From positions 1-13,254 of the IMG/VR virus record IMGVR_UViG_2734482778_000014: a stretch of 13,254 nucleotides of DNA. One strand, given 5' to 3'. Positions 1 through 13,254 of this stretch are shown here, one piece after another; position 1 is the first letter of the stretch, and every line of letters begins with the position of its first letter. A model generated the notes under the pieces. It searched no databases and was not told the DNA's origin. It saw nothing but the letters and a program-made list of their open reading frames with translations. The stretch is from a virus. Taxonomy: Duplodnaviria; Heunggongvirae; Uroviricota; Caudoviricetes. Both the position numbers and the translations under genes were made by a program.

Positions 1-318
1 ATGAAAAAGATAGCTGCTATATCATTAATTAGTATTTTTATTATGTCTGGTTGTGCTGTGCATAATGATGAGACAAGTATCGGTAAATTTGGTCTTGCAT
101 ATAAAAGTAATATTCAGCGTAAACTCGATAACCAATACTACACCGAAGCCGAAGCTTCTTTAGCCAGGGGTAGAATATCTGGTGCAGAAAATATAGTAAA
201 AAATGATGCAACTCATTTCTGTGTTACTCAGGGCAAAAAAATGCAAATAGTTGAGCTGAAGACAGAAGGTGTAGGATTACATGGTGTCGCTCGTCTGACA
301 TTCAAATGTGGAGAGTGA
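1..318 (+). CDS. small predicted outer-membrane lipoprotein (105 aa), function unknown; probable prophage moron
   Basis: ATG at window position 1; N-terminus MKKIAAISLISIFIMSGC has a basic n-region, hydrophobic h-region and lipobox-like MSG|C (Cys18); residue +2 is Ala rather than Asp, so outer-membrane sorting is expected; stop TGA 316-318; visibly AT-richer than the tail genes downstream. Confidence 0.6.
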   Translation: MKKIAAISLISIFIMSGCAVHNDETSIGKFGLAYKSNIQRKLDNQYYTEAEASLARGRISGAENIVKNDATHFCVTQGKKMQIVELKTEGVGLHGVARLTFKCGE

Positions 319-413: not shown

Positions 414-2294
414 ATGAAGGAGGATTCTATCGATGTGGTCAATGGAAGACGGTTACCAGAGATAGGGCTTATGCATAAAAAAATAAGCCCGTGTACCCGC
501 CCTTTGAGTACGACTATAGACCTGAATACGCTTGGAGCCGCCGAACATCTTGGTTTATGGCGTAACAGTAGCTCGGCTATAGCTTCATATGAACGCAATT
601 ATCCAGAGGAAGGCGGCTTTGCTCAGGGGATGCTTGAGATCCTCGAAGGCGGGAATTATGGAAGAACGCAACGTTATACCACTCGCCGTGGAAATATGTA
701 TGTCCGCTGCCTTGCGGCAAGCTGGGATGTATCAAATCCGCAGTGGGAACCGTGGTTAAGAGTCGGTCATCAGTCAGAGAGTCGTTATTACGAAGGTGAT
801 TTAAATGTTCTAACCGACCCCGGTATTTACAGTGTTACAGGAAAGGCAACAAACGGTCCGATGCTGGACACCGTTGGCGCGACACTACTTGGGATACTGG
901 AAGTAATCAGACGTTTTGATGGTGTGTCTGTCTGGCAGCGTTACACAACCACAGGGAAATCAGAAACCACACAGGGACGCACTTTTGAGCGCGTCTACGC
1001 CGGGAGCAAATGGACCGAATGGCGAGAAGTATATAACTCCTTTTCGTTGCCTCTGAATCTGGGCATCGGTGGCGCAGTGGCAAAACTATCCAGTCTGGAC
1101 TGGCAGACCTACGATTTTGTGCCGGGCAGTCTGATAACCGTGCGGCTTGATAACATGACCAACATTCCCGACGGTATGGACTGGGGCGTCATTGATGGCA
1201 ACCTGATAAACATCGCAGTTGGTCCGAGTGATGATTCCGGTACGGGACGCTCAATGCATGTATGGCGAAGCACTGTAAGTAAAGCCAACTACCGCTTTTT
1301 TATGGTGCGCGTTTCAGGAAATCCGGGAAGCCGCACGATTACAACAAGACGAGTACCAATCATTGACGAAGCCCAGACATGGGGCGCGAAACAGACATTC
1401 AGTGCTGGCCTTTCTGGTGAACTGTTCGGCAATGCTGCGACAGCAACAAAGCTGAAAACAGCCCGTAAAATTAATAACGTTTCGTTTGATGGAACATCAG
1501 ATATTAACCTGACGCCTGAAGATATTGGTGCATTGCCAATAACGGGAGGAACTCTTACCGGCGGTTTAACTGCTGCTGGCGAGATTATTTCCAAATCGGC
1601 GAATGGTCTTCGTATTGCCTATGGCAACTATGGATTCTTTATCCGAAACGATGGTTCAAGCACATACCTCATGTTGACCAATTCGGGCGACAGCCTGGGA
1701 ACATGGAATAGTTTAAGGCCGCTTACCATTAATAACGCCAGTGGAGCTGTTTCTATCGGTAATAGTTTAACTGTTAATGGTGATATAGGAACCAATGCTT
1801 GGGTATATGCAAATCGTTTTGCAATTAATAGCAGTACCGGAATGTGGATAAATATGCGTGACCAGAATGTTATTTTTGGACGTAATGCGGTATCCACCGA
1901 TGGTGCTCAGGCATTGTTACGTCAGGACCATGCTGATCGCAAATTTATGATTGGTGGTCTGGGGAATAAGCAATTTGGCATCTACATGATTAATAATTCA
2001 AGGACAGCCAATGGCACCGATGGTCAGGCGTACATGGATAATAACGGGAATTGGCTTTGCGGTGCGCAAGTTATTCCCGGCAATTATGGTAATTTTGACT
2101 CACGCTATGTGAGAGATGTCAGACTTGGCACACGTGTTGTTCAGACCATGCAAAAAGGCGTGATGTATGAAAAATCAGGTCATGTAATCACGGGGCTTGG
2201 TATTGTCGGTGAAGTCGATGGTGATGACCCGGCAGTATTCAGACCTGTTCAAAAATACATTAACGGAACATGGTATAACGTATCGCAGGTGTAA
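414..2294 (+). CDS. H: phage tail fiber protein with P2 gpH-like C-terminus; N-terminal part divergent, start codon ambiguous
   Basis: Long ORF in frame with the track ORF 306..2294. The C-terminal ~70 aa (NYGNFDSRYVRDVRLGTRVVQTMQKGVMYEKSGHVITGLGIVGEVDGDDPAVFRPVQKYINGTWYNVSQV) matches the conserved P2 H / Mu S / P1 S-type fiber C-terminus as I recall it; the motif GNAATATKLKTARKINNVSFDGTSDINLTPEDIGAL is typical of enterobacterial prophage tail fibers; it is followed by a tail fiber assembly gene. Possible starts: ATG 306 (no SD, overlaps lipoprotein gene), ATG 387, ATG 414, or GTG 435 (11 nt after AAGGAGG). Symbol refers to the P2 homologue by C-terminal similarity only. Confidence 0.8.
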   Translation: MKEDSIDVVNGRRLPEIGLMHKKISPCTRPLSTTIDLNTLGAAEHLGLWRNSSSAIASYERNYPEEGGFAQGMLEILEGGNYGRTQRYTTRRGNMYVRCLAASWDVSNPQWEPWLRVGHQSESRYYEGDLNVLTDPGIYSVTGKATNGPMLDTVGATLLGILEVIRRFDGVSVWQRYTTTGKSETTQGRTFERVYAGSKWTEWREVYNSFSLPLNLGIGGAVAKLSSLDWQTYDFVPGSLITVRLDNMTNIPDGMDWGVIDGNLINIAVGPSDDSGTGRSMHVWRSTVSKANYRFFMVRVSGNPGSRTITTRRVPIIDEAQTWGAKQTFSAGLSGELFGNAATATKLKTARKINNVSFDGTSDINLTPEDIGALPITGGTLTGGLTAAGEIISKSANGLRIAYGNYGFFIRNDGSSTYLMLTNSGDSLGTWNSLRPLTINNASGAVSIGNSLTVNGDIGTNAWVYANRFAINSSTGMWINMRDQNVIFGRNAVSTDGAQALLRQDHADRKFMIGGLGNKQFGIYMINNSRTANGTDGQAYMDNNGNWLCGAQVIPGNYGNFDSRYVRDVRLGTRVVQTMQKGVMYEKSGHVITGLGIVGEVDGDDPAVFRPVQKYINGTWYNVSQV

Positions 2295-2297
2295 TTT

Positions 2298-2825
2298 ATG
2301 CAACACTTAAAAAACATTATTGCGGGAAATCCAAAAACGGTTGAGCAATATAAACTGACAAAGAATTTTGATGTTATCTGGTTATGGGCCGAAGACGGAA
2401 AAAACTGGTATGAGGAAGTAAGTAATTTTCAGGAAGACACGATAAAGATTGTTTACGACGAGCATAATATTATTGTCGCCATCACCAAAGATGCCTCCAC
2501 GCTTAACCCTGAAGGTTTTAGCGTTGTCGAGGTTCCTGATATTACCGCCAACCGACGTGCTGATGACTCAGGTAAATGGATGTTTAAGGGTGGTGCCGTG
2601 ATTAAGCGGATTTATACGGCAGATGAACAGCAGCAACAGGCAGAATCACAAAAGGCCGCGTTACTTTCCGAAGCGGAAAGCGTTATTCAGCCACTGGAAC
2701 GCGCTGTCAGGCTGAATATGGCGACGGATGAGGAGCGCACACGGCTGGCTGTATGGGAACGCTACAGTGTTCTGGTCAGTCGTGTGGATCTTGCAAATCC
2801 CGAATGGCCGGAAATGCCGCAATAA
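2298..2825 (+). CDS. G: tail fiber assembly protein (P2 gpG / Tfa family), 175 aa
   Basis: ATG 2298 with AGGTG SD, 3 nt after the fiber stop; 175 aa, the same length as P2 G; sits directly downstream of the fiber gene, the conserved Tfa position. Similarity is from recalled sequence, not a search. Confidence 0.88.
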
Positions 2826-2859: not shown

Positions 2860-2901
2860 TAGCACAGAGTAAAGCCTAATCTGACAGTCCGCTCTGTGCT
2901 A
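2860..2901. repeat. perfect 10-bp inverted repeat (tagcacagag ... ctctgtgcta) separated by 22 bp
   Basis: Read directly: 2860-2869 is the exact reverse complement of 2892-2901. Lies in the intergenic region between gene G and the convergent ABC ATPase gene, at the left boundary of the AT-rich cassette. Confidence 0.6.
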
Positions 2902-2959
2902 GGTGCAGACATAGCTTAGAGCAGCTTGTGTAAATCTGCAGGGACGAGCTTAAAGAAGC

Positions 2960-2986
2960 GCCGCCTTCATAGAAGGCAGCATTTTA
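2960..2986. terminator. candidate bidirectional intrinsic terminator between convergent genes
   Basis: Stem gccgccttc (2960-2968) / gaaggcagc (2972-2980), 9 bp with one C-A mismatch and a 3-nt loop, followed by ATTTT on the plus strand and by CTTCTTT on the minus strand; 4 nt from the ABC ATPase stop codon (2984-2986). Confidence 0.45.
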
Positions 2987-5344
2987 CATTTGTCTACTAT
3001 CAATACCTGAACGTGCTGCTTCCATGAAGTTGATCCTTCCTGCTGGCATACCAAATTTTTTGTATTTATAACGAAAATAGGCCGACATACGGTCTTCATG
3101 CGTTGATATAATTATCTGACGATCTCGGAATTCAGTTCGTAGTAACTCGACAAAGCCAGCTACATTAATTTCGTCCAGTGTCTGAACAGGATCATCTACG
3201 AGCAATAGAGAGTGCTTGGCGTACCGCTGATTCAAGGCAAGAGTAAATGATAGTACCAATGCTGAAAGCTGGCCCGAACTCATGGAAAAGACGGCATCAT
3301 GCTCATGCCCTGGTGTTTCATTGAAGGCGATAGAATTACCATCATTTTCTATGAAGATACCCAGCCCCTGCTGATAACTTTGCATAAGGCGACCTGAATA
3401 GATATGAAATAGAATCTCAATCTCTTTAACTATAGATTCGAGATACGATCTTTTCTCACTCTCATAAATTCTTTTGATTTTCTGTAGATGACCTTTCAGT
3501 TTATCGGCCTTTCTAATTAATATTTCAGCTTTATTATACTCCAACTCACATTCCGAGATGTATTTAGATAAAGCAATGGATTGTTGCTGCCCTAAATAAG
3601 TTTTTTTCAATTCAAGTCTTGAGGGGGTGATATATTTAACCGAGAGGGGGTCGTTATTAAACACTTCACGAAAAACTCTCTCAAAATCATCATGGATACA
3701 GCTGTCGTCAACTGGTTTAAATATTTCACGAACGCGACGCTCGAGTTCATCTATCGCGAGTTGTGTTACAGGTTCAAAATTATCGCACAGTAAGTCCTGA
3801 AATATAACCCCCCCAGCTAGTAGTTGTTTATAATAATTTTCTAACCACAGGATTTGTTCTTCTGATAAACTTGTTAGTTGGCGCTTACGCTCAATACTTT
3901 CTTTCTCTTGCACCAGATATGTCTGCAGTACAATTTCAATGGGCTCCTGCCAGTTGCGTCTGAAATTGGCTAGTGCTTGTGAGAATTGATCATTCTGTTG
4001 CTCGGCTAAATTTTCTAGAATTATACGTTGGTTTTCAATTCCTCCAAGCAGAGCATCAGCCGTTGGCCAAGGATGTCCACACGTAGGGCAAATATTTGTC
4101 AAATCGCAGTGAGATTCATGCTTCCTGAAAGCACTTACCATTTGCTCGCGTGTTTGTAGCAGCGCCGCATAGCATTCCTGAACTTTATCTGAATTAGCTA
4201 ACTGCAATTTGAGCCCGGCTACCTGTTGATGAAACTCCTCCGGCGATAGGGTTTCCGGGAGGAGAGTGACCAGTGGAGCAGTGATCACCAAACGATCTTC
4301 ATTGATAGCCTTTATTGTATCTTTAAATGCGTCACTTAGTGCTAAGGCTGATTCAAAACAAGCAACGTCATCCTGCCATTTGTTCCTTTGTTCAATAGAT
4401 TGATAATACATCAAAAACCGCTGTTGTAGCTCCTGTTTAGGGAGGAGTTTCTTTATCAATTCATTATTATATAGCTGATTTTCATATTGTTCGAAATTTT
4501 CAGTAAAACGTCGGACTCGGAATAACTCTCCATCTGCAGATAACCACTGTTCGAATTGCTGTGCATCAACCTCCACAACATCACGATCCCATGGTTGATC
4601 TGTAATTGCGATAATCCTTTCATATGCAACAGAACTATCTGCTGGTAGCATCTGCTGCTTAGCTAGGTCCCATTTATCTTTAAGTTGTTTCATTTCGGCA
4701 TATTTCTGTGGATTACACAATTTACCGATTTTGGTTGATGCCAAGTTAATATTACTAATTTTGTCCTGAATGTCTCCAATATCGAACAGATGTGCAATCT
4801 GGCTCTGTCTATCTTTTTCCTTTTGTTTTAGCAACCGAGTGTTTTCTTCTTGCTCAACATAATGAAACAATTCAAAATCACGTTGATACTGATCTCCTAG
4901 TAAGGCAGAAAGGTATGATTCTTCTTGCGAAATAGCTTCACCTCGCTCCGCGTTGAAATCGGCTAATTCATAAAGAGGAAGCCTTAAATCAGCTACGCCT
5001 TTATGTTCATCTAGAACTGCTTTGCTGGCTGCTCTCTCGAGAAAACAACTACTCCCATCAACTAAGATCTCGGCACGGATTGAAAGCCAATCATCATTTC
5101 TCGCTTGTTTGAATAACCAAGGACAGCCAGTTTTCAAGCTTCGTCGATCTATTGTAAGTTTTTCGAGTTCAATATAGCGCCGGATTTTTCCTGTCAGTAG
5201 CAGTTCTAGTGCATCAAAAAAAGATGATTTACCGAAACCATTGGGACCATCAAGAACAATGAGATATTCACTTTCAAGAGTTAACTCTAGTTTCTCAAAG
5301 ACTTTAAAATTACGTACTTCTAGGCGTTTAACAATCAATTTCAT
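2984..5344 (-). CDS. SMC/Rad50-like ABC ATPase with long coiled-coil insert (LmuB / DdmC-like, ABC-three-component family)
   Basis: Preferred start ATG 5344-5342 (MKLIVKRLEVRNFKVF..., preceded by GAGG); the track ORF begins at an upstream GTG at 5368. Walker A GPNGFGKS at nt 5225-5248; about 650 residues rich in Q/E/K/L heptad-like sequence; CPTC (CxxC) at nt 4079-4090 near the protein midpoint; C-terminal signature-like SSGQ (3269-3280), Walker B LLLVDD (3191-3208) and H-loop STHED (His codon 3098-3100). Stop TAA 2984-2986. Confidence 0.85.
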   Translation of the reverse strand: MKLIVKRLEVRNFKVFEKLELTLESEYLIVLDGPNGFGKSSFFDALELLLTGKIRRYIELEKLTIDRRSLKTGCPWLFKQARNDDWLSIRAEILVDGSSCFLERAASKAVLDEHKGVADLRLPLYELADFNAERGEAISQEESYLSALLGDQYQRDFELFHYVEQEENTRLLKQKEKDRQSQIAHLFDIGDIQDKISNINLASTKIGKLCNPQKYAEMKQLKDKWDLAKQQMLPADSSVAYERIIAITDQPWDRDVVEVDAQQFEQWLSADGELFRVRRFTENFEQYENQLYNNELIKKLLPKQELQQRFLMYYQSIEQRNKWQDDVACFESALALSDAFKDTIKAINEDRLVITAPLVTLLPETLSPEEFHQQVAGLKLQLANSDKVQECYAALLQTREQMVSAFRKHESHCDLTNICPTCGHPWPTADALLGGIENQRIILENLAEQQNDQFSQALANFRRNWQEPIEIVLQTYLVQEKESIERKRQLTSLSEEQILWLENYYKQLLAGGVIFQDLLCDNFEPVTQLAIDELERRVREIFKPVDDSCIHDDFERVFREVFNNDPLSVKYITPSRLELKKTYLGQQQSIALSKYISECELEYNKAEILIRKADKLKGHLQKIKRIYESEKRSYLESIVKEIEILFHIYSGRLMQSYQQGLGIFIENDGNSIAFNETPGHEHDAVFSMSSGQLSALVLSFTLALNQRYAKHSLLLVDDPVQTLDEINVAGFVELLRTEFRDRQIIISTHEDRMSAYFRYKYKKFGMPAGRINFMEAARSGIDSRQM

Positions 5345-6032
5345 AACCTGCCTCAGATAATTTATCACCCATGGAAATTAATAGATCTTCCGGTAATACA
5401 TCCTGTGATACAATCTGAGCAGCTAAAGAATCAATAACTGAGTCGAATGTAGTTAATAGAGCAGGGTTATCCGTGCGCTGAATTTTTTCATTAATACTTC
5501 GTTCAAGGCTAGCTAAATCAGAATTACCAAAGCTATTAACTGCTATAAAAGGCAGTTTTATCACAAGTCTGTATAGTAGGCTTTGCCATCCACCTTGTAG
5601 GTAATGAGATTTATATTCGGTAAAGGTATCAGGAGAAGTAATCAATTCGCGAAAGACTGCTGCGAGTCCTTGGGTATCAACCTGCTGGTATAAAGCTTCA
5701 AGCTCTGCGGTAGTATATGGAAGTACGTGTTTCTTGAAGAAATAACTATCTTCTTCCGCATGATGAACTCTTTTACTACAAAGCACACTTGAGCTGTCAG
5801 TGTTCCATACAATCAATAAATTAATGTTTTTCTCAAGTGCGGGATCGGATGTGGCTTTTTTACATTCATTCAACCACCCAGCTTGGATTTCAGGTGTAAT
5901 TATCGGCTCACCAAAGACTACTAACCAGAAATTTTTCTTACCCAGTGTACTGTATTCGTATAACGCCAAGTCTGTGGAATGTTTACGCGTCAGTCCTTCT
6001 GATTCCAACAATTGCTCAATTAGGTTCTGCAT
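5328..6032 (-). CDS. hypothetical protein, 234 aa; candidate middle component of an ABC-three-component / Lamassu-like system (LmuC / DdmB position)
   Basis: ATG 6032-6030; stop TAA 5328-5330; no motif I can recognise. Sandwiched between the putative effector and the ABC ATPase with 17-nt overlaps on both sides, indicating a co-translated operon. Family assignment is by position only. Confidence 0.5.
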   Translation of the reverse strand: MQNLIEQLLESEGLTRKHSTDLALYEYSTLGKKNFWLVVFGEPIITPEIQAGWLNECKKATSDPALEKNINLLIVWNTDSSSVLCSKRVHHAEEDSYFFKKHVLPYTTAELEALYQQVDTQGLAAVFRELITSPDTFTEYKSHYLQGGWQSLLYRLVIKLPFIAVNSFGNSDLASLERSINEKIQRTDNPALLTTFDSVIDSLAAQIVSQDVLPEDLLISMGDKLSEAGYEIDC

Positions 6033-7332
6033 CTTTCAAACTCTCAGGTACATTGTTTAAAGAAACCATAGCCACCTTCTTATAATTCCCGATGCGGTTT
6101 TCCCTTAGTAATTCGTGTTCAATGGTATCCACTCCCTCAGTGGCGTCGATACCTACGAGTACGTCAGAGATTGAAGGTCTGTCTATGGCGCTGGTGATAA
6201 GTACACCGCCCTCAAATAAACATTCTACATCTTCGCTAATTGCCTGTTGCATGATGTCATGACAGATACTTTCCTGATGCTCTACAGCATGGTGGATACC
6301 TGTTGGATAATAGAAAAGCCCATCATTTAGCCAAGAGAATGCAACACCAGAAACTTCATTTCGTGCAGCCTGAACTAGTTTCCAGAAAATTGTAAACATC
6401 CCAAGTCGCATTGCATCACGATCAAGTGATTGTTCCTTAAATTCATCAAGAGTTCTAAAACGTCCCTTTTTATGCGGCATCGTTGCTCTCAGGAATGACT
6501 TCATTCCATCAACATCCAACGCAGTGATAGCAGCCAGATAGTCATCTAACTTTTGACATGCTGCTTGGGAGAAGCCGTCTTGGCGATCACAAAACTCTTG
6601 GTAGTATGTGCCAATATCAATCTGCAGGCGGCTAAGGAAGAACGCTTCATTCTCAAACGGAGTATAATCGTTTGCTTCGATTACACCATACAACTCAGAA
6701 AACTCGATGAATTCGCCAGCTGCGATTGCCGTCTGATGACGCACAGACTCGTGTATCCGACTATGGGTCATAATGACTTTTGAATTTACTATGGCTTCAA
6801 GCGTGTTCTGAATATTTGCAACGAGATGAATCTTCCAGGCGGGTAGTACTGCGATATTAGAAAGTAGGCTGGTAAGTTTATTCCTAATCAATCTGTCCAC
6901 CTCACTCAGTGGGCAAAAGGATTGTGTGGCATTTCCTTCTACATCAGGTGGAATAGGGTAAGCATAAAATCTCACTGGTCCATAGTCAGCCTCAAATGTT
7001 GCCGGAACGTTCATTACTTCGCGAGCCACATGGAAATAAGCGAGCTGCACACCTCGCTCCCTCGCACTATCCCGTTGGGTAGTGATGCCATCTCTGTAGG
7101 CGGAAAAGCGCGTGTCTTTGTACGCTTTGACCTGATGCATTGACAGGCATTGCTGGTGACGAAAAATTGCGAAATCATCCTGGCTTTCTAGCTGCAGTTT
7201 CAAATCTCGGTTCGCTTCATAATCTGAGGACATCATCTTCAAACAGTGGTACAGCGCCAGCTTGCCCTGATAGACAAATCCACTCCACGTAGAGATGGCT
7301 GTGTGTGGAAAAACTTGAGGAACAACTGCCAT
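6016..7332 (-). CDS. putative nuclease effector with N-terminal PD-(D/E)xK-like motifs (Cap4/DUF4297-like; LmuA / DdmA position)
   Basis: Preferred start ATG 7332-7330 (MAVVPQVF..., upstream AAGGGA); the track ORF begins at GTG 7347. N-terminal region contains GFVYQ (nt 7267-7281), then LQLESQDDFAIF and MHQVK: Asp codons at 7174-7179 and Q-x-K at 7126-7134, a spacing and context consistent with a restriction-endonuclease-like D...(E/Q)xK core. The C-terminal ~300 aa has no recognisable motif. Stop TGA 6016-6018. Confidence 0.5.
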   Translation of the reverse strand: MAVVPQVFPHTAISTWSGFVYQGKLALYHCLKMMSSDYEANRDLKLQLESQDDFAIFRHQQCLSMHQVKAYKDTRFSAYRDGITTQRDSARERGVQLAYFHVAREVMNVPATFEADYGPVRFYAYPIPPDVEGNATQSFCPLSEVDRLIRNKLTSLLSNIAVLPAWKIHLVANIQNTLEAIVNSKVIMTHSRIHESVRHQTAIAAGEFIEFSELYGVIEANDYTPFENEAFFLSRLQIDIGTYYQEFCDRQDGFSQAACQKLDDYLAAITALDVDGMKSFLRATMPHKKGRFRTLDEFKEQSLDRDAMRLGMFTIFWKLVQAARNEVSGVAFSWLNDGLFYYPTGIHHAVEHQESICHDIMQQAISEDVECLFEGGVLITSAIDRPSISDVLVGIDATEGVDTIEHELLRENRIGNYKKVAMVSLNNVPESLKDAEPN

Positions 7333-7415
7333 GAGATCCCTTATCACTTTAGATTCACATCATTGGGACATTCTCAGCACGGAGACTCTTCCCATCCTCT
7401 AACGATATATAGCCT

Positions 7416-7444
7416 ATTGACATATAAAATACTCTTAGTATTTT
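7416..7444 (+). promoter_or_regulatory. candidate sigma70 promoter: TTGACA (7416-7421), 17-bp spacer, TATTTT (7439-7444)
   Basis: Perfect -35 hexamer and acceptable -10 with correct spacing in the AT-rich region between the cassette and FI; predicted transcription start near 7451, reading toward the terminator at 7781-7809. Confidence 0.35.
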
Positions 7445-7780
7445 CGTGGATATTGTTCTATCCCCTAGATTTACATGCTTGTTGCTTATCATATCCTTAC
7501 ACTGAATCTTCGTTGGTTTGGTCAGCATCTCTAACCAGTCCCTCACGGAGAATTACTGCAACAATACAATTGTCATAAAACCTTCCGCTTAGAAGGGAAA
7601 ATGTCAACTCAACAAAGTGGTTGGCCCACTATTGATTAATAAACAATACTAGTAATGCTTCCATCGGCTGTAAGAAAAATTGAGGACTTCCGCTCCTCGC
7701 TCAAAGCAGGCTATCAGACTTGATAGCGTTTTGGCTATGTAAATTGTCAGTTGGAAAATGAGTGAGTACAAATCAGGACA

Positions 7781-7809
7781 GGCGGGCGAATTGCCCGCCT
7801 TTTCTTTAT
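7781..7809 (+). terminator. rho-independent terminator (GGCGGGC gaatt GCCCGCC then TTTTCTTTAT)
   Basis: Perfect 7-bp GC stem with 5-nt loop followed by a T-rich tract on the plus strand; no annotated plus-strand ORF of meaningful size ends upstream of it. Confidence 0.7.
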
Positions 7810-7903
7810 CTGTTGTTTCATCCACTGACCAGCCAGGTCAAATAGCGTCTCATGCACTGTCCAACAGAAAATAGTTGCACCCATTAACCACGGAGTTAAA
7901 CGG

Positions 7904-8565
7904 ATGAGTGACTATCATCATGGCGTGCAGGTGCTGGAGATTAACGACGGCACCCGCGTCATTTCCACCGTATCCACCGCCATTGTTGGCATGGTCTGCA
8001 CGGCCAGCGATGCGGATGCGGAAACCTTCCCCCTCAATAAACCGGTGCTGATTACCAATGTGCAGAGCGCAATTGCAAAGGCCGGTAAAAAAGGCACGCT
8101 GGCGGCGTCGTTGCAGGCCATCGCTGACCAGTCAAAACCAGTCACCGTTGTCGTGCGTGTTGAAGACGGCACCGGCGACGACGAGGAAACGAAACTCGCG
8201 CAGACCGTTTCCAATATCATCGGCACCACTGACGAAAACGGTCAGTACACCGGACTGAAAGCCCTGATGACACGATGGCTGAGGCGCACATGTGGGCTAT
8301 TGATAAGCCCATCACCGCAACGCTGATTCGCGACATCGTTGACGGCATCAATGCCAAATTCCGTGAACTGAAAAGCAACGGTTATATCGTGGATGGCACA
8401 TGCTGGTTCAGTGAAGAAGCCAATGATGCGGAAACCCTCAAGGCCGGAAAACTGTATATCGACTACGACTATACCCCGGTGCCTCCTCTCGAAAACCTGA
8501 CCCTGCGCCAGCGTATTACTTCAAGATACCTGGCAAGTCTGGTCACCTCGGTTAACAGCAATTAA
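7904..8565 (+). pseudogene. FI: tail sheath protein gene FI, disrupted: frame break and apparent internal deletion of about 0.5 kb
   Basis: ATG 7904 with GGAG SD. The N-terminal ~121 codons ([54 protein letters not shown]...TGLKAL) match the P2 sheath N-terminus as recalled. At about 8265-8270 the frame changes, and the sheath C-terminus ([35 protein letters not shown]...LVTSVNSN) continues in another frame to stop 8563-8565. Total coding capacity is about 220 codons, against the roughly 390-400 aa expected for a P2-type sheath. Confidence 0.8.
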
Positions 8566-8577
8566 GGAGCCTGACCG

Positions 8578-9096
8578 ATGGCAATGCCGCGCAAACTCAA
8601 GTTAATGAACGTCTTTCTGAACGGCTACAGCTATCAGGGCGTCGCGAAGTCCGTCACGCTGCCAAAACTGACCCGTAAGCTCGAAAACTATCGCGGTGCG
8701 GGGATGAACGGCAGCGCACCGGTAGACCTCGGCCTTGATGACGATGCGCTGTCAATGGAGTGGTCGCTCGGGGGCTTCCCGGATTCGGTTATCTGGGAAC
8801 TTTACGCCGCAACCGGTGTGGATGCCGTGCCGATTCGTTTTGCAGGCTCTTACCAGCGTGACGATACCGGCGAAACGGTGGCCGTCGAAGTGGTCATGCG
8901 TGGCCGTCAGAAAGAAATCGACACCGGCGAGGGTAAACAGGGAGAAGACACCGAGTCGAAAATCTCCGTGGTCTGCACCTATTTCCGGCTGACGATGGAC
9001 GGTAAGGAGCTGGTCGAAATTGACACCATCAACATGATTGAGAAGGTGAACGGCGTCGACCGGCTGGAGCAACACCGCCGCAATATCGGCCTGTGA
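8578..9096 (+). CDS. FII: tail tube protein (P2 gpFII), 172 aa
   Basis: ATG 8578 preceded by AAGGAG (8564-8569); 172 aa, the same length as P2 FII; sequence MAMPRKLKLMNVFLNGYSYQGVAKSVTLPKL... recalled as P2-type tube; conserved position after the sheath gene. Confidence 0.92.
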   Translation: MAMPRKLKLMNVFLNGYSYQGVAKSVTLPKLTRKLENYRGAGMNGSAPVDLGLDDDALSMEWSLGGFPDSVIWELYAATGVDAVPIRFAGSYQRDDTGETVAVEVVMRGRQKEIDTGEGKQGEDTESKISVVCTYFRLTMDGKELVEIDTINMIEKVNGVDRLEQHRRNIGL

Positions 9097-9103
9097 TTTT
9101 CAT

Positions 9104-9124
9104 CCGGTCAGCCTGGCTGACCGG
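9104..9124 (+). other. stem-loop between tube gene and gene E (ccggtcagc ctg gctgaccgg)
   Basis: Read directly: 9104-9112 is the reverse complement of 9116-9124 (9-bp stem, 3-nt loop), 8 nt after the FII stop. No strong T-run follows, so it is a possible attenuator, processing or stability element rather than a full terminator. Confidence 0.35.
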
Positions 9125-9152
9125 TTAACCCTGATTCAGAAGTGAGAAAACC

Positions 9153-9428
9153 ATGAACAAAGAAAATGTGATTACCCTGGACAATCCGGTCAAGCGTGGT
9201 GAGCAGGTTATCGAACAGGTCACGCTGATGAAACCCAATGCCGGGACGCTGCGCGGTGTCAGTCTGGCAGCGGTCGCGAACTCCGAAGTCGATGCACTGA
9301 TTAAGGTGCTGCCGCGCATGACGGCACCGATGCTGACCGAGCAGGAGGTCGCCGCGCTGGAACTGCCTGACCTTGTGGCGCTGGCCGGTAAGGTGGTCGG
9401 TTTTTTGTCGCCGAACTCGGTGCAGTAA
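9153..9428 (+). CDS. E: tail assembly chaperone (P2 gpE), 91 aa
   Basis: ATG 9153; 91 aa, the same length as P2 E; conserved position between tube and tape measure genes; contains the slippery heptamer near its 3' end. Confidence 0.88.
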   Translation: MNKENVITLDNPVKRGEQVIEQVTLMKPNAGTLRGVSLAAVANSEVDALIKVLPRMTAPMLTEQEVAALELPDLVALAGKVVGFLSPNSVQ

Positions 9429-9580
9429 CGTTTCCGAAAAATCTCTCGGTCGATGACCTGATGGCGGATGTGGCAGTGATATTTCACTGGCCGCCATCAG
9501 AACTGTATCCCATGAGCCTGACCGAACTCATCACATGGCGCGAAAAGGCGCTCCGGCGAAGCGGAAACACGAATGAGTAA
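9153..9580 (+). CDS. E': tail assembly chaperone E+E' fusion made by programmed -1 ribosomal frameshift
   Basis: Slippery heptamer T TTT TTG at 9401-9407 in the correct phase of the E frame (ggT TTT TTG); after a -1 shift the frame stays open to TAA 9578-9580, overlapping the T start codon at 9573. Combined product is about 142 aa. E/E' frameshifting is established for P2 and analogous to lambda G/GT. Confidence 0.75.
9401..9407 (+). promoter_or_regulatory. -1 frameshift slippery site TTTTTTG for E/E'
   Basis: Heptamer fits the X XXY YYZ pattern in the E reading frame; the -1 frame downstream is open for about 58 codons. Confidence 0.75.
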
Positions 9581-12020
9581 CAATGTAAAATTACAGGTAT
9601 TGCTCAGGGCTGTTGACCAGGCATCCCGCCCGTTTAAATCCATCCGCACAGCGAGTAAGTCGCTGTCGGGGGATATCCGGGAAACACAACAATCACTGCG
9701 CGAGCTGAACGGTCACGCATCCCGTATTGAGGGATTTCGCAAGACCAGCGCACAGCTCGCCGTGACTGGTCAGGAACTGAAAAAAGCCAGACAGGAAGCC
9801 GCAGCTCTGGCTGTCCAGTTTAAAAATACTGAACGACCGACAAATGCACAGGCAAAGGCAATGGAAGCCGCGCGTAAAAATGCGTCTGAGTTACAGGCGA
9901 AATATAACAGCCTGAGATTGTCGGTACAGCGCCAGCGTCAGGAATTGAGTCAGGCGGGTATTAATACCCGTAATCTGGCGCATGATGAACGAGGGCTGAA
10001 AAACCGTATCAGTGAAACCACCGCACAGCTTAACCGGCAGCGTGACGCGCTGGTGCGTGTCAGTGCGCAACAGGCAAAACTTAATGCAGTAAAACAGCGT
10101 TATCAGGCCGGAAAGGAACTGGCCGGAAACATGGCCTCAGTGGGCGCTGCTGGTGTGGGGATTGCGGCGGCGGGAACGATGGCCGGAGTTAAGCTGCTGA
10201 TGCCCGGCTATGAGTTTGCGCAGAAAAACTCAGAATTGCAGGCCGTGCTGGGTGTGGCAAAAGACTCCGCCGAAATGGCCGCGCTACGCAAGCAGGCGCG
10301 CCAGCTCGGCGACAATACCGCAGCCTCGGCGGATGATGCAGCCGGTGCGCAGATTATCATTGCGAAAGCCGGTGGGGATGTTGATGCCATTCAGGCGGCA
10401 ACGCCGATCACGCTGAATATGGCGCTGGCGAACCGTCGCACGATGGAAGAAAACGCCGCTCTGCTGATGGGGATGAAATCCGCCTTTCAGCTTTCAAACG
10501 ATAAGGTCGCTCATATCGGGGATGTTCTCTCCATGACGATGAACAAAACCGCCGCCGATTTTGACGGCATGAGCGATGCGCTGACCTATGCCGCACCTGT
10601 GGCAAAAAATGCCGGTGTCAGCATTGAAGAAACCGCCGCAATGGTCGGGGCACTGCATGATGCAAAAATCACAGGCTCAATGGCGGGGACGGGAAGTCGT
10701 GCCGTGTTAAGCCGCCTGCAGGCACCGACGGGAAAAGCATGGGATGCACTCAAAGAACTTGGTGTGAAAACCTCAGACAGTAAGGGAAACACCCGGCCAA
10801 TATTTACCATTCTGAAAGAAATGCAGGCCAGTTTTGAGAAAAACCGGCTCGGTACTGCCCAGCAGGCTGAATACATGAAAACCATTTTCGGGGAGGAAGC
10901 CAGCTCAGCCGCCGCCGTGCTGATGATTGCCGCCTCAACCGGAAAGCTGGACAAACTGACTGCTGCGTTTAAAGCCTCAGACGGGAAGACCGCAGAGCTG
11001 GTAAATATCATGCAGGACAATCTCGGCGGTGACTTTAAGGAGTTTCAGTCCGCTTATGAAGCGGTGGGGACAGACCTGTTTGACCAGCAGGAAGGCGCAC
11101 TGCGTAATCTCACGCAGACGGCCACAAAGTATGTGTTAAAACTAGACGGCTGGATCAAGAAAAACAAATCACTGGCGTCAACCATCGGCCTCATTGTCGG
11201 TGGCGCACTGGCGCTTATTGGCATCATCGGTGCCATTGGTCTTGTAGCCTGGCCGGTTATCACCGGCATCAATGCCATTATCGCGGCAGTGGGCGCAATA
11301 GGGGCAATCTTCACGACGGTTGGCAGTGCCGTTATGACGGCCATCGGGGCGATTAGCTGGCCGGTTGTGGCCGTGGTGGCCGCCATTGTCGCCGGGGCGT
11401 TGCTTATCCGTAAATACTGGGAGCCTGTCAGCGCATTCTTTGGCGGTGTGGTTGAAGGGCTGAAAGCAGCATTTGCGCCGGTGGGGGAACTGTTCACGCC
11501 ACTTAAGTCGCTGTTTGACTGGCTGGGCGAAAAGTTACAGGCCGCTTGGCAGTGGTTTAAAAACCTGATTGCCCCGGTTAAAGCCACCCAGGACACCCTG
11601 AACCGTTGCCGTGACACGGGCGTCATGTTCGGGCAGGCACTGGCTGACGCGTTGATGTTGCCGCTTAATGCGTTCAACAAACTGCGCAGTGGTATTGACT
11701 GGGTACTGGAAAAACTCGGTGTTATCAACAAAGAGTCAGACACACTTGACCAGACCGCCGCCAGAACTCATGCCGCCACGTATGGCACCGGTGGTTATAT
11801 TCCGGCGACCAGCTCTTATGCAGGCTATCAGGCTTATCAGCCGGTCACGGCACCGGCTGGCCGCTCTTATGTAGACCAGAGTAAAAACGAATATCACATC
11901 AGCCTGACGGGTGGTACTGCGCCGGGGACACAGCTTGACCGCCAGTTACAGGATGCGCTCGAAAAATACGAGCGGGATAAACGTGTGCGCGCCCGTGCCA
12001 GCATGATGCATGACGGTTAA
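9573..12020 (+). CDS. T: tail tape measure protein (P2 gpT), 815 aa
   Basis: ATG 9573; 815 aa, the same length as P2 T; coiled-coil-rich N-terminal half and a long Gly/Ala/Ile-rich hydrophobic segment (around nt 11150-11420) typical of tape measure proteins; conserved position after E/E'. Confidence 0.93.
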   Translation: MSNNVKLQVLLRAVDQASRPFKSIRTASKSLSGDIRETQQSLRELNGHASRIEGFRKTSAQLAVTGQELKKARQEAAALAVQFKNTERPTNAQAKAMEAARKNASELQAKYNSLRLSVQRQRQELSQAGINTRNLAHDERGLKNRISETTAQLNRQRDALVRVSAQQAKLNAVKQRYQAGKELAGNMASVGAAGVGIAAAGTMAGVKLLMPGYEFAQKNSELQAVLGVAKDSAEMAALRKQARQLGDNTAASADDAAGAQIIIAKAGGDVDAIQAATPITLNMALANRRTMEENAALLMGMKSAFQLSNDKVAHIGDVLSMTMNKTAADFDGMSDALTYAAPVAKNAGVSIEETAAMVGALHDAKITGSMAGTGSRAVLSRLQAPTGKAWDALKELGVKTSDSKGNTRPIFTILKEMQASFEKNRLGTAQQAEYMKTIFGEEASSAAAVLMIAASTGKLDKLTAAFKASDGKTAELVNIMQDNLGGDFKEFQSAYEAVGTDLFDQQEGALRNLTQTATKYVLKLDGWIKKNKSLASTIGLIVGGALALIGIIGAIGLVAWPVITGINAIIAAVGAIGAIFTTVGSAVMTAIGAISWPVVAVVAAIVAGALLIRKYWEPVSAFFGGVVEGLKAAFAPVGELFTPLKSLFDWLGEKLQAAWQWFKNLIAPVKATQDTLNRCRDTGVMFGQALADALMLPLNAFNKLRSGIDWVLEKLGVINKESDTLDQTAARTHAATYGTGGYIPATSSYAGYQAYQPVTAPAGRSYVDQSKNEYHISLTGGTAPGTQLDRQLQDALEKYERDKRVRARASMMHDG

Positions 12021-12034
12021 GGAGGTGACGAAAA

Positions 12035-12514
12035 ATGATGCTCGCGTTAGGTATGTTTGTTTTTATGCGCCAGACGCTGCCACACCAGACCATGCAGCGT
12101 GAATCTGATTATCGCTGGCCGTCAAATTCCCGTATCGGTAAACGGGATGCCTACCAGTTTCTCGGTGTTGGCGAGGAAAACATGACGCTTGCCGGTGTGC
12201 TTTATCCTGAACTGACCGGCGGAAAGCTGACGATGACCACGCTCAGGCTGATGGCAGATGAAGGCCGGGCGTGGCCGTTGCTGGATGGCACCGGCATGAT
12301 TTACGGCATGTATGTCATCAGCAAGGTGAGTGAAACAGGGAGTATTTTCTTTGCAGACGGCACACCCCGGAAAATTGATTTTACGCTGTCGCTCACCCGC
12401 GTTGATGAATCACTGGCCGCGCTTTATGGCGATATCAGTAAACAGGCGGAGTCGCTCATCGGTAAGGCCGGCAGTATGGCGACCAGATTCACAGGTATGA
12501 CGGGGGCGGGATAA
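12035..12514 (+). CDS. U: tail protein gpU, 159 aa
   Basis: ATG 12035 preceded by AAGGAGGTGA; 159 aa, the same length as P2 U; stop TAA 12512-12514 overlaps the D start by 1 nt. Confidence 0.9.
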   Translation: MMLALGMFVFMRQTLPHQTMQRESDYRWPSNSRIGKRDAYQFLGVGEENMTLAGVLYPELTGGKLTMTTLRLMADEGRAWPLLDGTGMIYGMYVISKVSETGSIFFADGTPRKIDFTLSLTRVDESLAALYGDISKQAESLIGKAGSMATRFTGMTGAG

Positions 12515-13254
12515 TGCTGGATGCGCTGACATTTGATGCAGGCAGTACGCTGACGCCGGATTATATGCTGATGCTCGACAGCAGGGATATTACCGGCAAT
12601 ATCAGCGACCGTCTGATGAGCATGACCCTGACGGATAACCGGGGCTTTGAGGCTGACCAGCTTGATATTGAACTGAACGATGCCGACGGGCAGGTCGGGC
12701 TGCCGGTTCGTGGCGCTGTCCTGACGGTGTATATCGGCTGGAAAGGTTTTGCCCTGGTATGCAAAGGAAAATTTACCGTTGATGAGGTTGAACACCGGGG
12801 CGCACCGGATGTGGTCACCATCCGCGCCCGGAGTGCAGATTTTCGCGGGACGCTCAATTCCCGCCGTGAAGGCTCCTGGCATGACACCACGCTCGGTGCG
12901 ATTGTTGAGGCGATAGCCTCCCGTAACAGGCTGGAAGCCAGTGTCGCTCCGTCACTGGCCGGAATTAAAATCCCGCACATCGACCAGTCGCAGGAGTCTG
13001 ATGCAAAATTCCTGACCCGCCTTGCTGAACGCAACGGCGGTGAGGTGTCGGTAAAAATGGGAAAACTGTTGTTTCTCAATGCGGGGCAGGGGGTGACGGC
13101 CAGCGGTAAAAAAATCCCGCAGATTACCATCACCCGCAGCGATGGCGACCGTCATCATTTTGCGATTGCTGACCGCGGAGCCTACACAGGTGTAACGGCA
13201 AAGTGGTTACACACCAAAGACCCGAAGCCGCAAAAGCTGCGTATTACCGTGAAG
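12514..13254 (+). CDS. D: tail protein gpD (late control / tail formation), 5' portion only; runs off window end
   Basis: ATG 12514 in a TAATG overlap with the U stop; frame open for 247 codons to the end of the window (MLDALTFDAGSTLTPDYMLMLDSRDITGNISDRLMSMTLTDNRGFEADQLDIELNDADGQ...). Not in the ORF track because no stop codon lies within the window. Confidence 0.88.
   Translation, partial: MLDALTFDAGSTLTPDYMLMLDSRDITGNISDRLMSMTLTDNRGFEADQLDIELNDADGQVGLPVRGAVLTVYIGWKGFALVCKGKFTVDEVEHRGAPDVVTIRARSADFRGTLNSRREGSWHDTTLGAIVEAIASRNRLEASVAPSLAGIKIPHIDQSQESDAKFLTRLAERNGGEVSVKMGKLLFLNAGQGVTASGKKIPQITITRSDGDRHHFAIADRGAYTGVTAKWLHTKDPKPQKLRITVK

Follow-up and report, generated by a model that had tools for sequence, protein, structure and literature searches.

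The 13,254-nucleotide (nt) window analyzed here, that is, the whole stretch of DNA under study (IMG/VR record IMGVR_UViG_2734482778_000014), spans the boundary between the Escherichia coli chromosome and the remnant of a P2-like (Peduovirus) prophage, a remnant located at the yegQ/yegR attachment (att) site and carrying, between the tail genes G and FI, a three-gene cassette, lmuA-lmuC-lmuB, that profile matches assign to the Lamassu defense systems. Homology to P2 relatives and the gene calls in sister loci show the P2-like gene order H-G-(hotspot)-FI-FII-E-E'-T-U-D-ogr, and Peduovirus P24B2 is syntenic with the window at 89–96% nucleotide identity. The sister records bear the source name Escherichia coli, one of them with the serotype O12:H48; a Shigella host, considered at first in view of the lack of the cassette in complete E. 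coli genomes, was rejected on the strength of these names. A sequence-only reading of this DNA had proposed that the cassette, which is uninterrupted beside a disrupted sheath gene, is kept intact by selection on the host after the phage lost the ability to form virions. The features of the window are as follows.

1–318, plus strand: host gene yegR (105 amino acids, aa) at the chromosomal edge of the prophage (Pfam YegR, PF27694, in identical loci; 100% identical to the E. coli K-12 yegR region)
477–495, plus strand: left 19 nt of the P2 att core, AAAAAAATAAGCCCGTGTA, a deletion scar, cut after GTGTA and joined to the middle of H
496–2294, plus strand: 3' part of the tail-fiber gene H, approximately codons 330–928 of 928 (alignment to the intact sister prophage starts at reference position 8197; Pfam Gp34_trimer)
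2298–2825, plus strand: tail-fiber assembly gene G, 175 aa, intact (Pfam Caudo_TAP, 2.6e-35)
2899–7688, minus strand: cargo insert in the G-FI (Z/fun) hotspot, identified by the gap in P24B2 homology and low G+C
2959–2981, minus strand: terminator-like hairpin directly 3' of lmuB, kept in cassette copies outside P2
2984–5344, minus strand: lmuB, predicted SMC/Rad50-like ATPase of 786 aa (PADLOC LmuB, 1.1e-61 across residues 9–777; Pfam SMC_N, 1.3e-18, 67.7 bits against a cut-off of 40)
5328–6032, minus strand: lmuC, middle component of 234 aa (Pfam MComp1, PF20289, 3e-10, 40.2 bits against a cut-off of 27.3)
6016–7332, minus strand: lmuA, predicted effector of 438 aa with an N-terminal Cap4-type nuclease motif and a CTD1 domain (PADLOC LmuA, 8.9e-18; Pfam CTD1, 2.5e-26, 93 bits)
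7333–7690, minus strand: cassette 5' non-coding region with presumed promoter and regulatory elements, conserved in copies elsewhere
7904–8565, plus strand: sheath gene FI with an internal, frameshifting 529-nt deletion (junction 8268/8269)
8578–9096, plus strand: FII, of the same length as in the intact sister prophage, as are the next four genes
9153–9428, plus strand: E
approximately 9461–9580, plus strand: E'
9573–12020, plus strand: T
12035–12514, plus strand: U
12514–13237, plus strand: 5' part of gene D, interrupted by an insertion sequence (IS); homology to the intact prophage ends at 13237
13238–13254: end of an IS21-family element (TGCGTATTACC...) in D; in loci L014 and L015, IstB and IstA (Pfam rve) follow and then D resumes

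The Lamassu cassette and its cargo hotspot

The three open reading frames (ORFs) of the cassette, on the minus strand, are open throughout window positions 2984–7347, just as the sequence-only reading had described them, and each overlaps its neighbor by 17 nt; their extents are 2984–5368 (786 aa from the ATG at 5344), 5328–6032 (234 aa) and 6016–7347 (438 aa from the ATG at 7332). LmuB contains a Walker A motif (G33..K39-S40), a signature motif (S689-S-G-Q692), a Walker B motif (LLLVDD, 713–718) and H749, as well as the putative zinc hook C419-P-T-C422, which is the sole invariant CxxC in the homologue alignment. In LmuA, the residues of the nuclease motif are E49, D52/D53 and Q67-V-K69. The motif residues of LmuA and LmuB are invariant across the eight homologues used for the motif alignments (57–90% identity), and all are kept in the window copy. 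LmuA scores 25.7 bits against Pfam Cap4_nuclease, just under the cut-off of 26.2, and seven of the eight homologues match this profile, so that the effector is predicted, as a borderline assignment, to be a Cap4-type (PD-(D/E)xK) nuclease. LmuC had no match among the PADLOC LmuC models. The order lmuA-lmuC-lmuB, with all three genes co-oriented, is the same in eight loci from six genera.

Given the criteria for long-type systems, namely, an LmuB of about 800 aa, a Walker B motif of the form hhhhDD and a single CxxC (Haudiquet et al., PMC12663957), the length of 786 aa, the LLLVDD motif and the single CPTC of the window LmuB place the cassette among them. Judged by its PADLOC and Pfam matches and by these motifs, the region is a long-type Lamassu module of the ABC-three-component (ABC-3C) class, and the cassette is thus a defense system, as had been suspected from the letters of the window. 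The proteins already carry the ABC-three-component annotation; NCBIfam has no specific family for any of the three, and PDB sequence searches with the single proteins and with eight-sequence profiles returned generic Rad50/SMC/ABC heads only and no Lamassu structure. An AlphaFold single-sequence model of LmuA reached a predicted local distance difference test (pLDDT) score of 37.5, too poor to judge the fold.

The closest described counterpart is the Lamassu/DdmABC system Vc-Cap4 of Vibrio cholerae (PMC12663957), which likewise consists of an lmuA-lmuC-lmuB operon encoding an SMC/Rad50-like LmuB, a small LmuC and an LmuA made up of a Cap4-type nuclease and, at the C terminus, a docking domain. 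Unlike the window system, with its 786-aa LmuB, LLLVDD motif and one CPTC, the V. cholerae system is of the short type and has no zinc hook; the solved Lamassu chains, too, differ in having no sequence-level match to the window proteins. In the V. cholerae system, of the short type, an LmuB2-LmuC core keeps LmuA sequestered as a monomer, and DNA ends or phage replication origins trigger the formation of LmuA tetramers in which the Cap4 nuclease is active; the only long-type system validated experimentally, from B. cereus, has hydrolase-protease effectors (PMC12663957). By analogy, a dimer of the window LmuB together with LmuC would keep LmuA in an inactive, monomeric form until DNA ends or intermediates of phage replication are sensed; once released, LmuA would oligomerize into an active Cap4-type DNase, resulting in abortive infection.

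The map position of the cassette is that of a known site of variable phage cargo. Homology to P24B2 breaks off at 2898 and is found again from 7689 onward, delimiting an insert of about 4.8 kb with a G+C content of about 40%, versus about 55% in the tail genes; P24B2 itself carries an unrelated 177-aa ORF at this position. Other E. coli P2-like prophages hold Shedu, HNH, DUF5677 with a recombinase, AbiGi with M48, RES, FRG, an S1 peptidase and others in the same slot. This is the second P2 defense hotspot, the site occupied by fun in P2 itself (Vassallo et al., bioRxiv 10.1101/2022.05.12.491691); the window shares its map position and its variable cargo and differs in that the cargo is a 4.8-kb Lamassu. 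Rousset et al. (PMC9122126) described the other P2 hotspot, between A and Q, and Lamassu is not mentioned there. By position and synteny, the cassette is phage cargo in the P2 G-FI (Z/fun) hotspot, and this part of the sequence-only reading holds as well.

The cassette is also found as a unit in places that lack P2 genes: in Edaphovirga cremea (88–92% amino acid identity), in an ssrA island of E. coli next to an integrase and an Eco57I-like enzyme (78–85%) and, more distantly, in Enterovibrio, Vibrio, Shewanella and Oceanisphaera (49–63%). Conservation extends beyond the coding region: about 330 nt of the 5' non-coding DNA are shared with the E. cremea copy and about 170 nt with the ssrA-island copy, and the 3' flank, including the hairpin (window 2930–2983), is conserved in both. 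This shared non-coding DNA indicates that the mobile unit carries its own regulatory flanks, although a consensus scan found no strong sigma-70 promoter match on the cassette strand. With a 5' region and a terminator of its own, the cassette should be expressed independently of the Ogr-driven late program of the phage.

Decay of the prophage and of its sister loci

The prophage itself is broken in three places. In FI, two blocks of the window, 7689–8269 and 8268–13237, align to P24B2 6001–6581 and 7110–12078, respectively, and comparison with an intact sister prophage shows that exactly 529 nt were deleted, with a 2-nt (TG) microhomology at the junction 8268/8269. The deletion takes approximately codons 123–298 of 396 and with them the Phage_sheath_1 domain; it also throws the gene out of frame, leaving a 140-aa N-terminal ORF (7904–8326) and a 96-aa C-terminal ORF (8275–8565). 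At the left end, everything from int to I is missing together with the first ~330 codons of H, with the junction, 495/496, lying next to yegR. At the right end, an IS21-family element breaks D at 13237/13238, the last 17 nt of the window being TGCGTATTACCGTGAAG; the same insertion is found in L014–L016, and L014 and L015 are 100% identical to the window. The IS in D is a third inactivating lesion that the sequence-only reading had not listed. The att-core/H deletion, the FI deletion and the IS are independent of one another, and the prophage is no longer equipped with all the genes needed for excision, replication and virion production. The prophage is a recently grounded wreck, so that the earlier description of a decaying prophage with a disrupted sheath gene was correct and, if anything, understated the damage.

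Across the left scar runs a 662-aa ORF (306–2294), a chimera that leads from the 3' end of yegR through the att-core scar into the C-terminal 599 codons of H; for this region, gene callers give products of 626 aa or 251 aa.

Sequencing error was a possibility that the sequence-only reading had allowed for the sheath break. The broader idea that faulty assembly or sequencing produced the break and that the prophage is in fact functional has some general basis, given that short-read assemblies of genomes with several P2-like prophages can mis-join and that in one sister locus, L018, what looked like cassette lesions proved to be gaps in the scaffold. However, the identical 529-nt junction and the 140-aa FI product are found on nine contigs from independent runs (ERR6449211, ERR14366135, SRR27594024, ERR2060070 and others; the contig-count listing gives eight), and the window is base-for-base identical to two such Logan contigs, from runs ERR14366135 and SRR27594024. 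Such recurrence across independent runs indicates that the break is inherited, sequencing error is ruled out, and, FI aside, the absence of int through I and of the 5' part of H and the IS in D would each still have to be accounted for. We therefore regard a functional prophage hidden behind an artefact as extremely improbable.

Sister loci, found by exact-protein look-ups, number in the dozens at the same chromosomal site and are at least 99.8% identical to the window. Three of them (L002, L009 and L022) are full prophages with an intact FI and the same Lamassu. Every remnant has a deletion that starts inside the att core and ends in I (most remnants, a junction denoted J0), in H (the window group and L005) or in G (L006). 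A 1,995-nt deletion in T and U (compare window 10400–12394) is present in most remnants and absent from the window group, to which the 529-nt FI deletion is limited. Elsewhere, H carries in-frame deletions (L007/L020; L018) or an IS10 (L025). Altogether, at least six further decay states exist among these loci, and since the junctions have only 2–3 nt of microhomology, each of them marks a single event. Contig counts were 152 for LmuA, 120 for LmuC with another 33 for a variant, 117 for LmuB and 134 for G, compared with 14 for intact T and 18 for intact U; most Lamassu-bearing loci are T/U-deleted remnants.

One locus was considered as a carrier of a broken cassette and rejected: in L018 (GCA_006233335.1), with an LmuB of 708 aa and an LmuC of 236 aa, the "lesions" are runs of N in scaffold gaps.

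There are also signs of exchange among these loci. Near-identical loci show every one of the four possible combinations of the H-truncating deletion (495/496) and the T/U deletion; homologous recombination between strains, within the remnant, appears the more likely source of these combinations, recurrent deletion being unlikely given junctions with only 2-nt microhomology. L002 (GCA_012920045.1) is 99.9% identical to the window through H, G and Lamassu and 97.4% identical from mid-FI to D (equivalent to window 7970–13237), and this mosaic boundary inside FI implies that a Lamassu-bearing phage recombined with another P2-like phage.

Possible selection on the cassette and its probable neutral retention

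If the host had domesticated the cassette, purifying selection would keep Lamassu after the loss of virion production while the phage genes decay. The divergence within the lineage is too shallow for the open frames to speak to this. Over ~12.7 kb, 2 substitutions separate the window from the intact sister prophage; the cassette would be expected to carry about one, and approximately 4% of random substitutions create stops. At a divergence of no more than 0.2%, open frames across the 4.35 kb of the cassette are the expectation under the null model and are uninformative on selection. Nor is it surprising that the FI deletion missed the cassette: by calculation, a random 529-nt deletion in a remnant of ~14 kb spares it about 60% of the time.

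The single-nucleotide polymorphisms (SNPs) within the lineage are likewise too few to decide. In the cassette, five are nonsynonymous (LmuB Q740R, A591T, R276Q and S69I; LmuC V38L) and none is synonymous; the dead structural genes have ~13 nonsynonymous and 2–7 synonymous SNPs. The 6.9-kb host flank has three nonsynonymous SNPs and one synonymous SNP. At this time depth, purifying selection shows in none of these sets, and with so few changes the within-lineage ratio of nonsynonymous to synonymous substitution rates (dN/dS) lacks power either way.

Some remnants have lost the cassette. A junction-probe search of 5,426 complete E. coli genomes recovered 359 genomes with the K-12-type junction, in which the att core is joined to D, eight with J0 and none with the window-type junction. 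The eight J0 genomes, from chicken, duck, fish meat and human sources, all have the T/U deletion junction as well, and they share a further deletion of 10,967 nt with an 8-nt microhomology, joining I' to T', which took H, G, lmuB, lmuC, lmuA, FI, FII, E and part of T. This deletion was seen in L037 (E. coli DSM 103246, 17150–17984) and in seven further complete genomes (H104–H110). Every locus with J0 and the T/U deletion that still holds the hotspot carries Lamassu, and because J0 and the T/U deletion are single events, the eight genomes must descend from a Lamassu-bearing remnant that lost the cassette, and they persist. Among complete genomes, no descendant of the remnant retains it: none of the 5,426 complete RefSeq E. 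coli genomes has the cassette at >80% identity, even though its exact proteins are present on about 120–150 draft or Logan contigs, and three have a copy at 80% identity in the ssrA island next to the Eco57I-like enzyme. The 359 genomes with a minimal K-12-type remnant of the same prophage lineage are cargo-free.

In another sublineage, the effector gene appears to be broken. In two NCBI assemblies (GCA_018838515.1 and GCA_039644005.1) and two Logan contigs, lmuA breaks at residue 98/99|100, its two parts lying on separate contigs; position 1 of L034 and of L035 corresponds to approximately window 7034. Such a split is typical of an IS insertion, which probably disrupts the gene here.

Counting events over the whole lineage, nine lesions affect structural DNA only and 2–3 of the 11–12 destroy the cassette, which makes up ~30% of the remnant length; the probability that at most 2 of 11 events fall in it (p = 0.30) is 0.31. 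Inactivating events per kb were not found to be fewer in the cassette than in dead phage DNA, in a comparison that suffers from biased sampling. Because that sampling was anchored on the cassette or G, cassette-destroying events are, if anything, under-counted.

Several observations nevertheless weigh against purely neutral retention and in favor of domestication. None of the ~57 cassette-linked contigs inspected has a nonsense mutation or frameshift in the cassette; each of them keeps the three genes intact, over a range of at least seven decay states. The nine independent lesions confined to structural DNA lean toward protection of the cassette, as does the att-anchored deletion of L006, which ends 234 nt short of lmuB. 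A limit on the neutral account is that the sampling was mostly anchored on the cassette or the neighboring G, and frequencies from draft genomes cannot be compared free of bias. The long-term dN/dS of the three genes is 0.07–0.17, which shows that the family is normally constrained, and the cassette is probably functional here, although this value reflects the period before the decay. The cassette comes with its own regulatory flanks, and domestication is documented as a general phenomenon (PMC7744054 and reviews).

Against this stand the points made above, that is, a divergence at which intact frames are expected without selection, five nonsynonymous and no synonymous changes in the cassette, its loss from eight persisting genomes, its absence at high identity from the complete genomes, the 359 cargo-free K-12-type remnants and the probable disruption of lmuA. 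Maintenance of the cassette by host selection thus finds no support in these data, and we consider domestication unlikely. The sequence-only reading had itself said that it would fail if related prophages showed the cassette equally often degraded; in part, they do, in the eight genomes that lost it.

What we favor, with reasonable confidence, is neutral retention in a very young wreck, with a cassette that is probably still active and incidentally useful. Lamassu arrived as cargo of a P2-like phage that integrated at yegQ/yegR; a deletion from the att core took int through the 5' part of H, the 529-nt deletion broke FI and the IS21-family element broke D. The cassette would be intact because there has been too little time and there have been too few lesions, any protective benefit being incidental.

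Deletions from the att core, K-12 PR-X and the meaning of the remnant

The left ends of the remnants follow a pattern of their own. The full 27-nt att core, AAAAAATAAGCCCGTGTAAGGGAGATT, is present in the empty attB (L039) and in an intact attR (L038), and the sister loci have the full core at attL (reference position 22311); the window has the partial core at 477–495. All remnant types cut the core at one and the same nucleotide, after GTGTA, that is, immediately after ...AAATAAGCCCGTGTA; this junction is seen in the window (477–496), in L017 (6862–6881), in L006 and in L036 (E. coli K-12). The partner sites of the deletions end in GTTA (in I), GCTA (in H), TGTA (in G) and GTGTA (in D, in K-12). 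The cryptic prophage PR-X of E. coli K-12 (ogrK–yegZ) has the same left junction, and its phage part is identical to this lineage at 639 of 640 positions, compared with 94% identity to P24B2. PR-X thus resembles the window in its att site, yegQ-yegR, in its break after GTGTA and in all but 1 nt of 640, and differs in that the K-12 deletion reaches D, the tail cluster and any hotspot cargo being gone.

Although derived markers (SNP 16003T and the T/U deletion) unite L005, L006 and L018, the left junction is a different one in each of the three, from which it follows that later deletions restarted at the same nucleotide. Phage lambda is known for Int-promoted deletions from att. Here, we tentatively suggest, at somewhat less than even confidence, that the decay is non-random, with nested, one-directional deletions running from a fixed phosphodiester between ...CCCGTGTA and AGGGAGATT to secondary sites with GTGTA-like microhomology; these may be products of P2 Int acting on attR, with other P2-like prophages providing Int in trans after the loss of the resident int.

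Such erosion offers a different account of why the cassette is still there, one in which neither selection nor pure chance explains its survival: recombinase-type deletions anchored in the att core would advance in one direction from the int/attR end, and the cassette, in the half near attL, would simply not have been reached by the front yet. Four different deletions that start at the same core nucleotide and end in I, H, G and, in PR-X, D, the similar endings of their partner sites and the three left junctions on a background of common derived markers all fit this account. However, its mechanism is read only from junction sequences, the later events would require Int in trans, and neither the deletion that removed the cassette from eight genomes nor the FI and T/U deletions are anchored at att. 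We regard survival by position as possible but rather doubtful, and neutral retention in a young wreck remains the explanation that we prefer.

The system, the hotspot, the prophage family and the concept of domestication are all known already. Domesticated defective prophages were reportedly a subject of Bobay et al. in 2014. The window resembles the domesticated or grounded prophages of other studies (PMC7744054, PMC6379469) in that it is defective, has lost lytic functions and has kept genes potentially beneficial to the host. Unlike in those studies, where selection was inferred from many old elements, the remnant here is too young, and sister lineages lose the cassette. If domestication were nonetheless true, the window would be one more case of phage-borne immunity outliving its phage, a well-established idea.

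The lesson is methodological: intact cargo beside a broken structural gene in a single genome, in a young wreck, is no evidence of selection, and the sister genomes show that the cassette is lost just as readily. At the same time, a long-type Lamassu with a predicted Cap4-type effector and its native flanks is a convenient candidate for work on a barely validated subtype. The natural series of att-core-anchored deletions, moreover, ties the PR-X prophage of K-12 to a phage that is still circulating. If the erosion from att is real, the Lamassu-bearing remnants and PR-X would be successive stages of one process, in which the survival of cargo would be set by its position relative to attR and not by its usefulness to the host.

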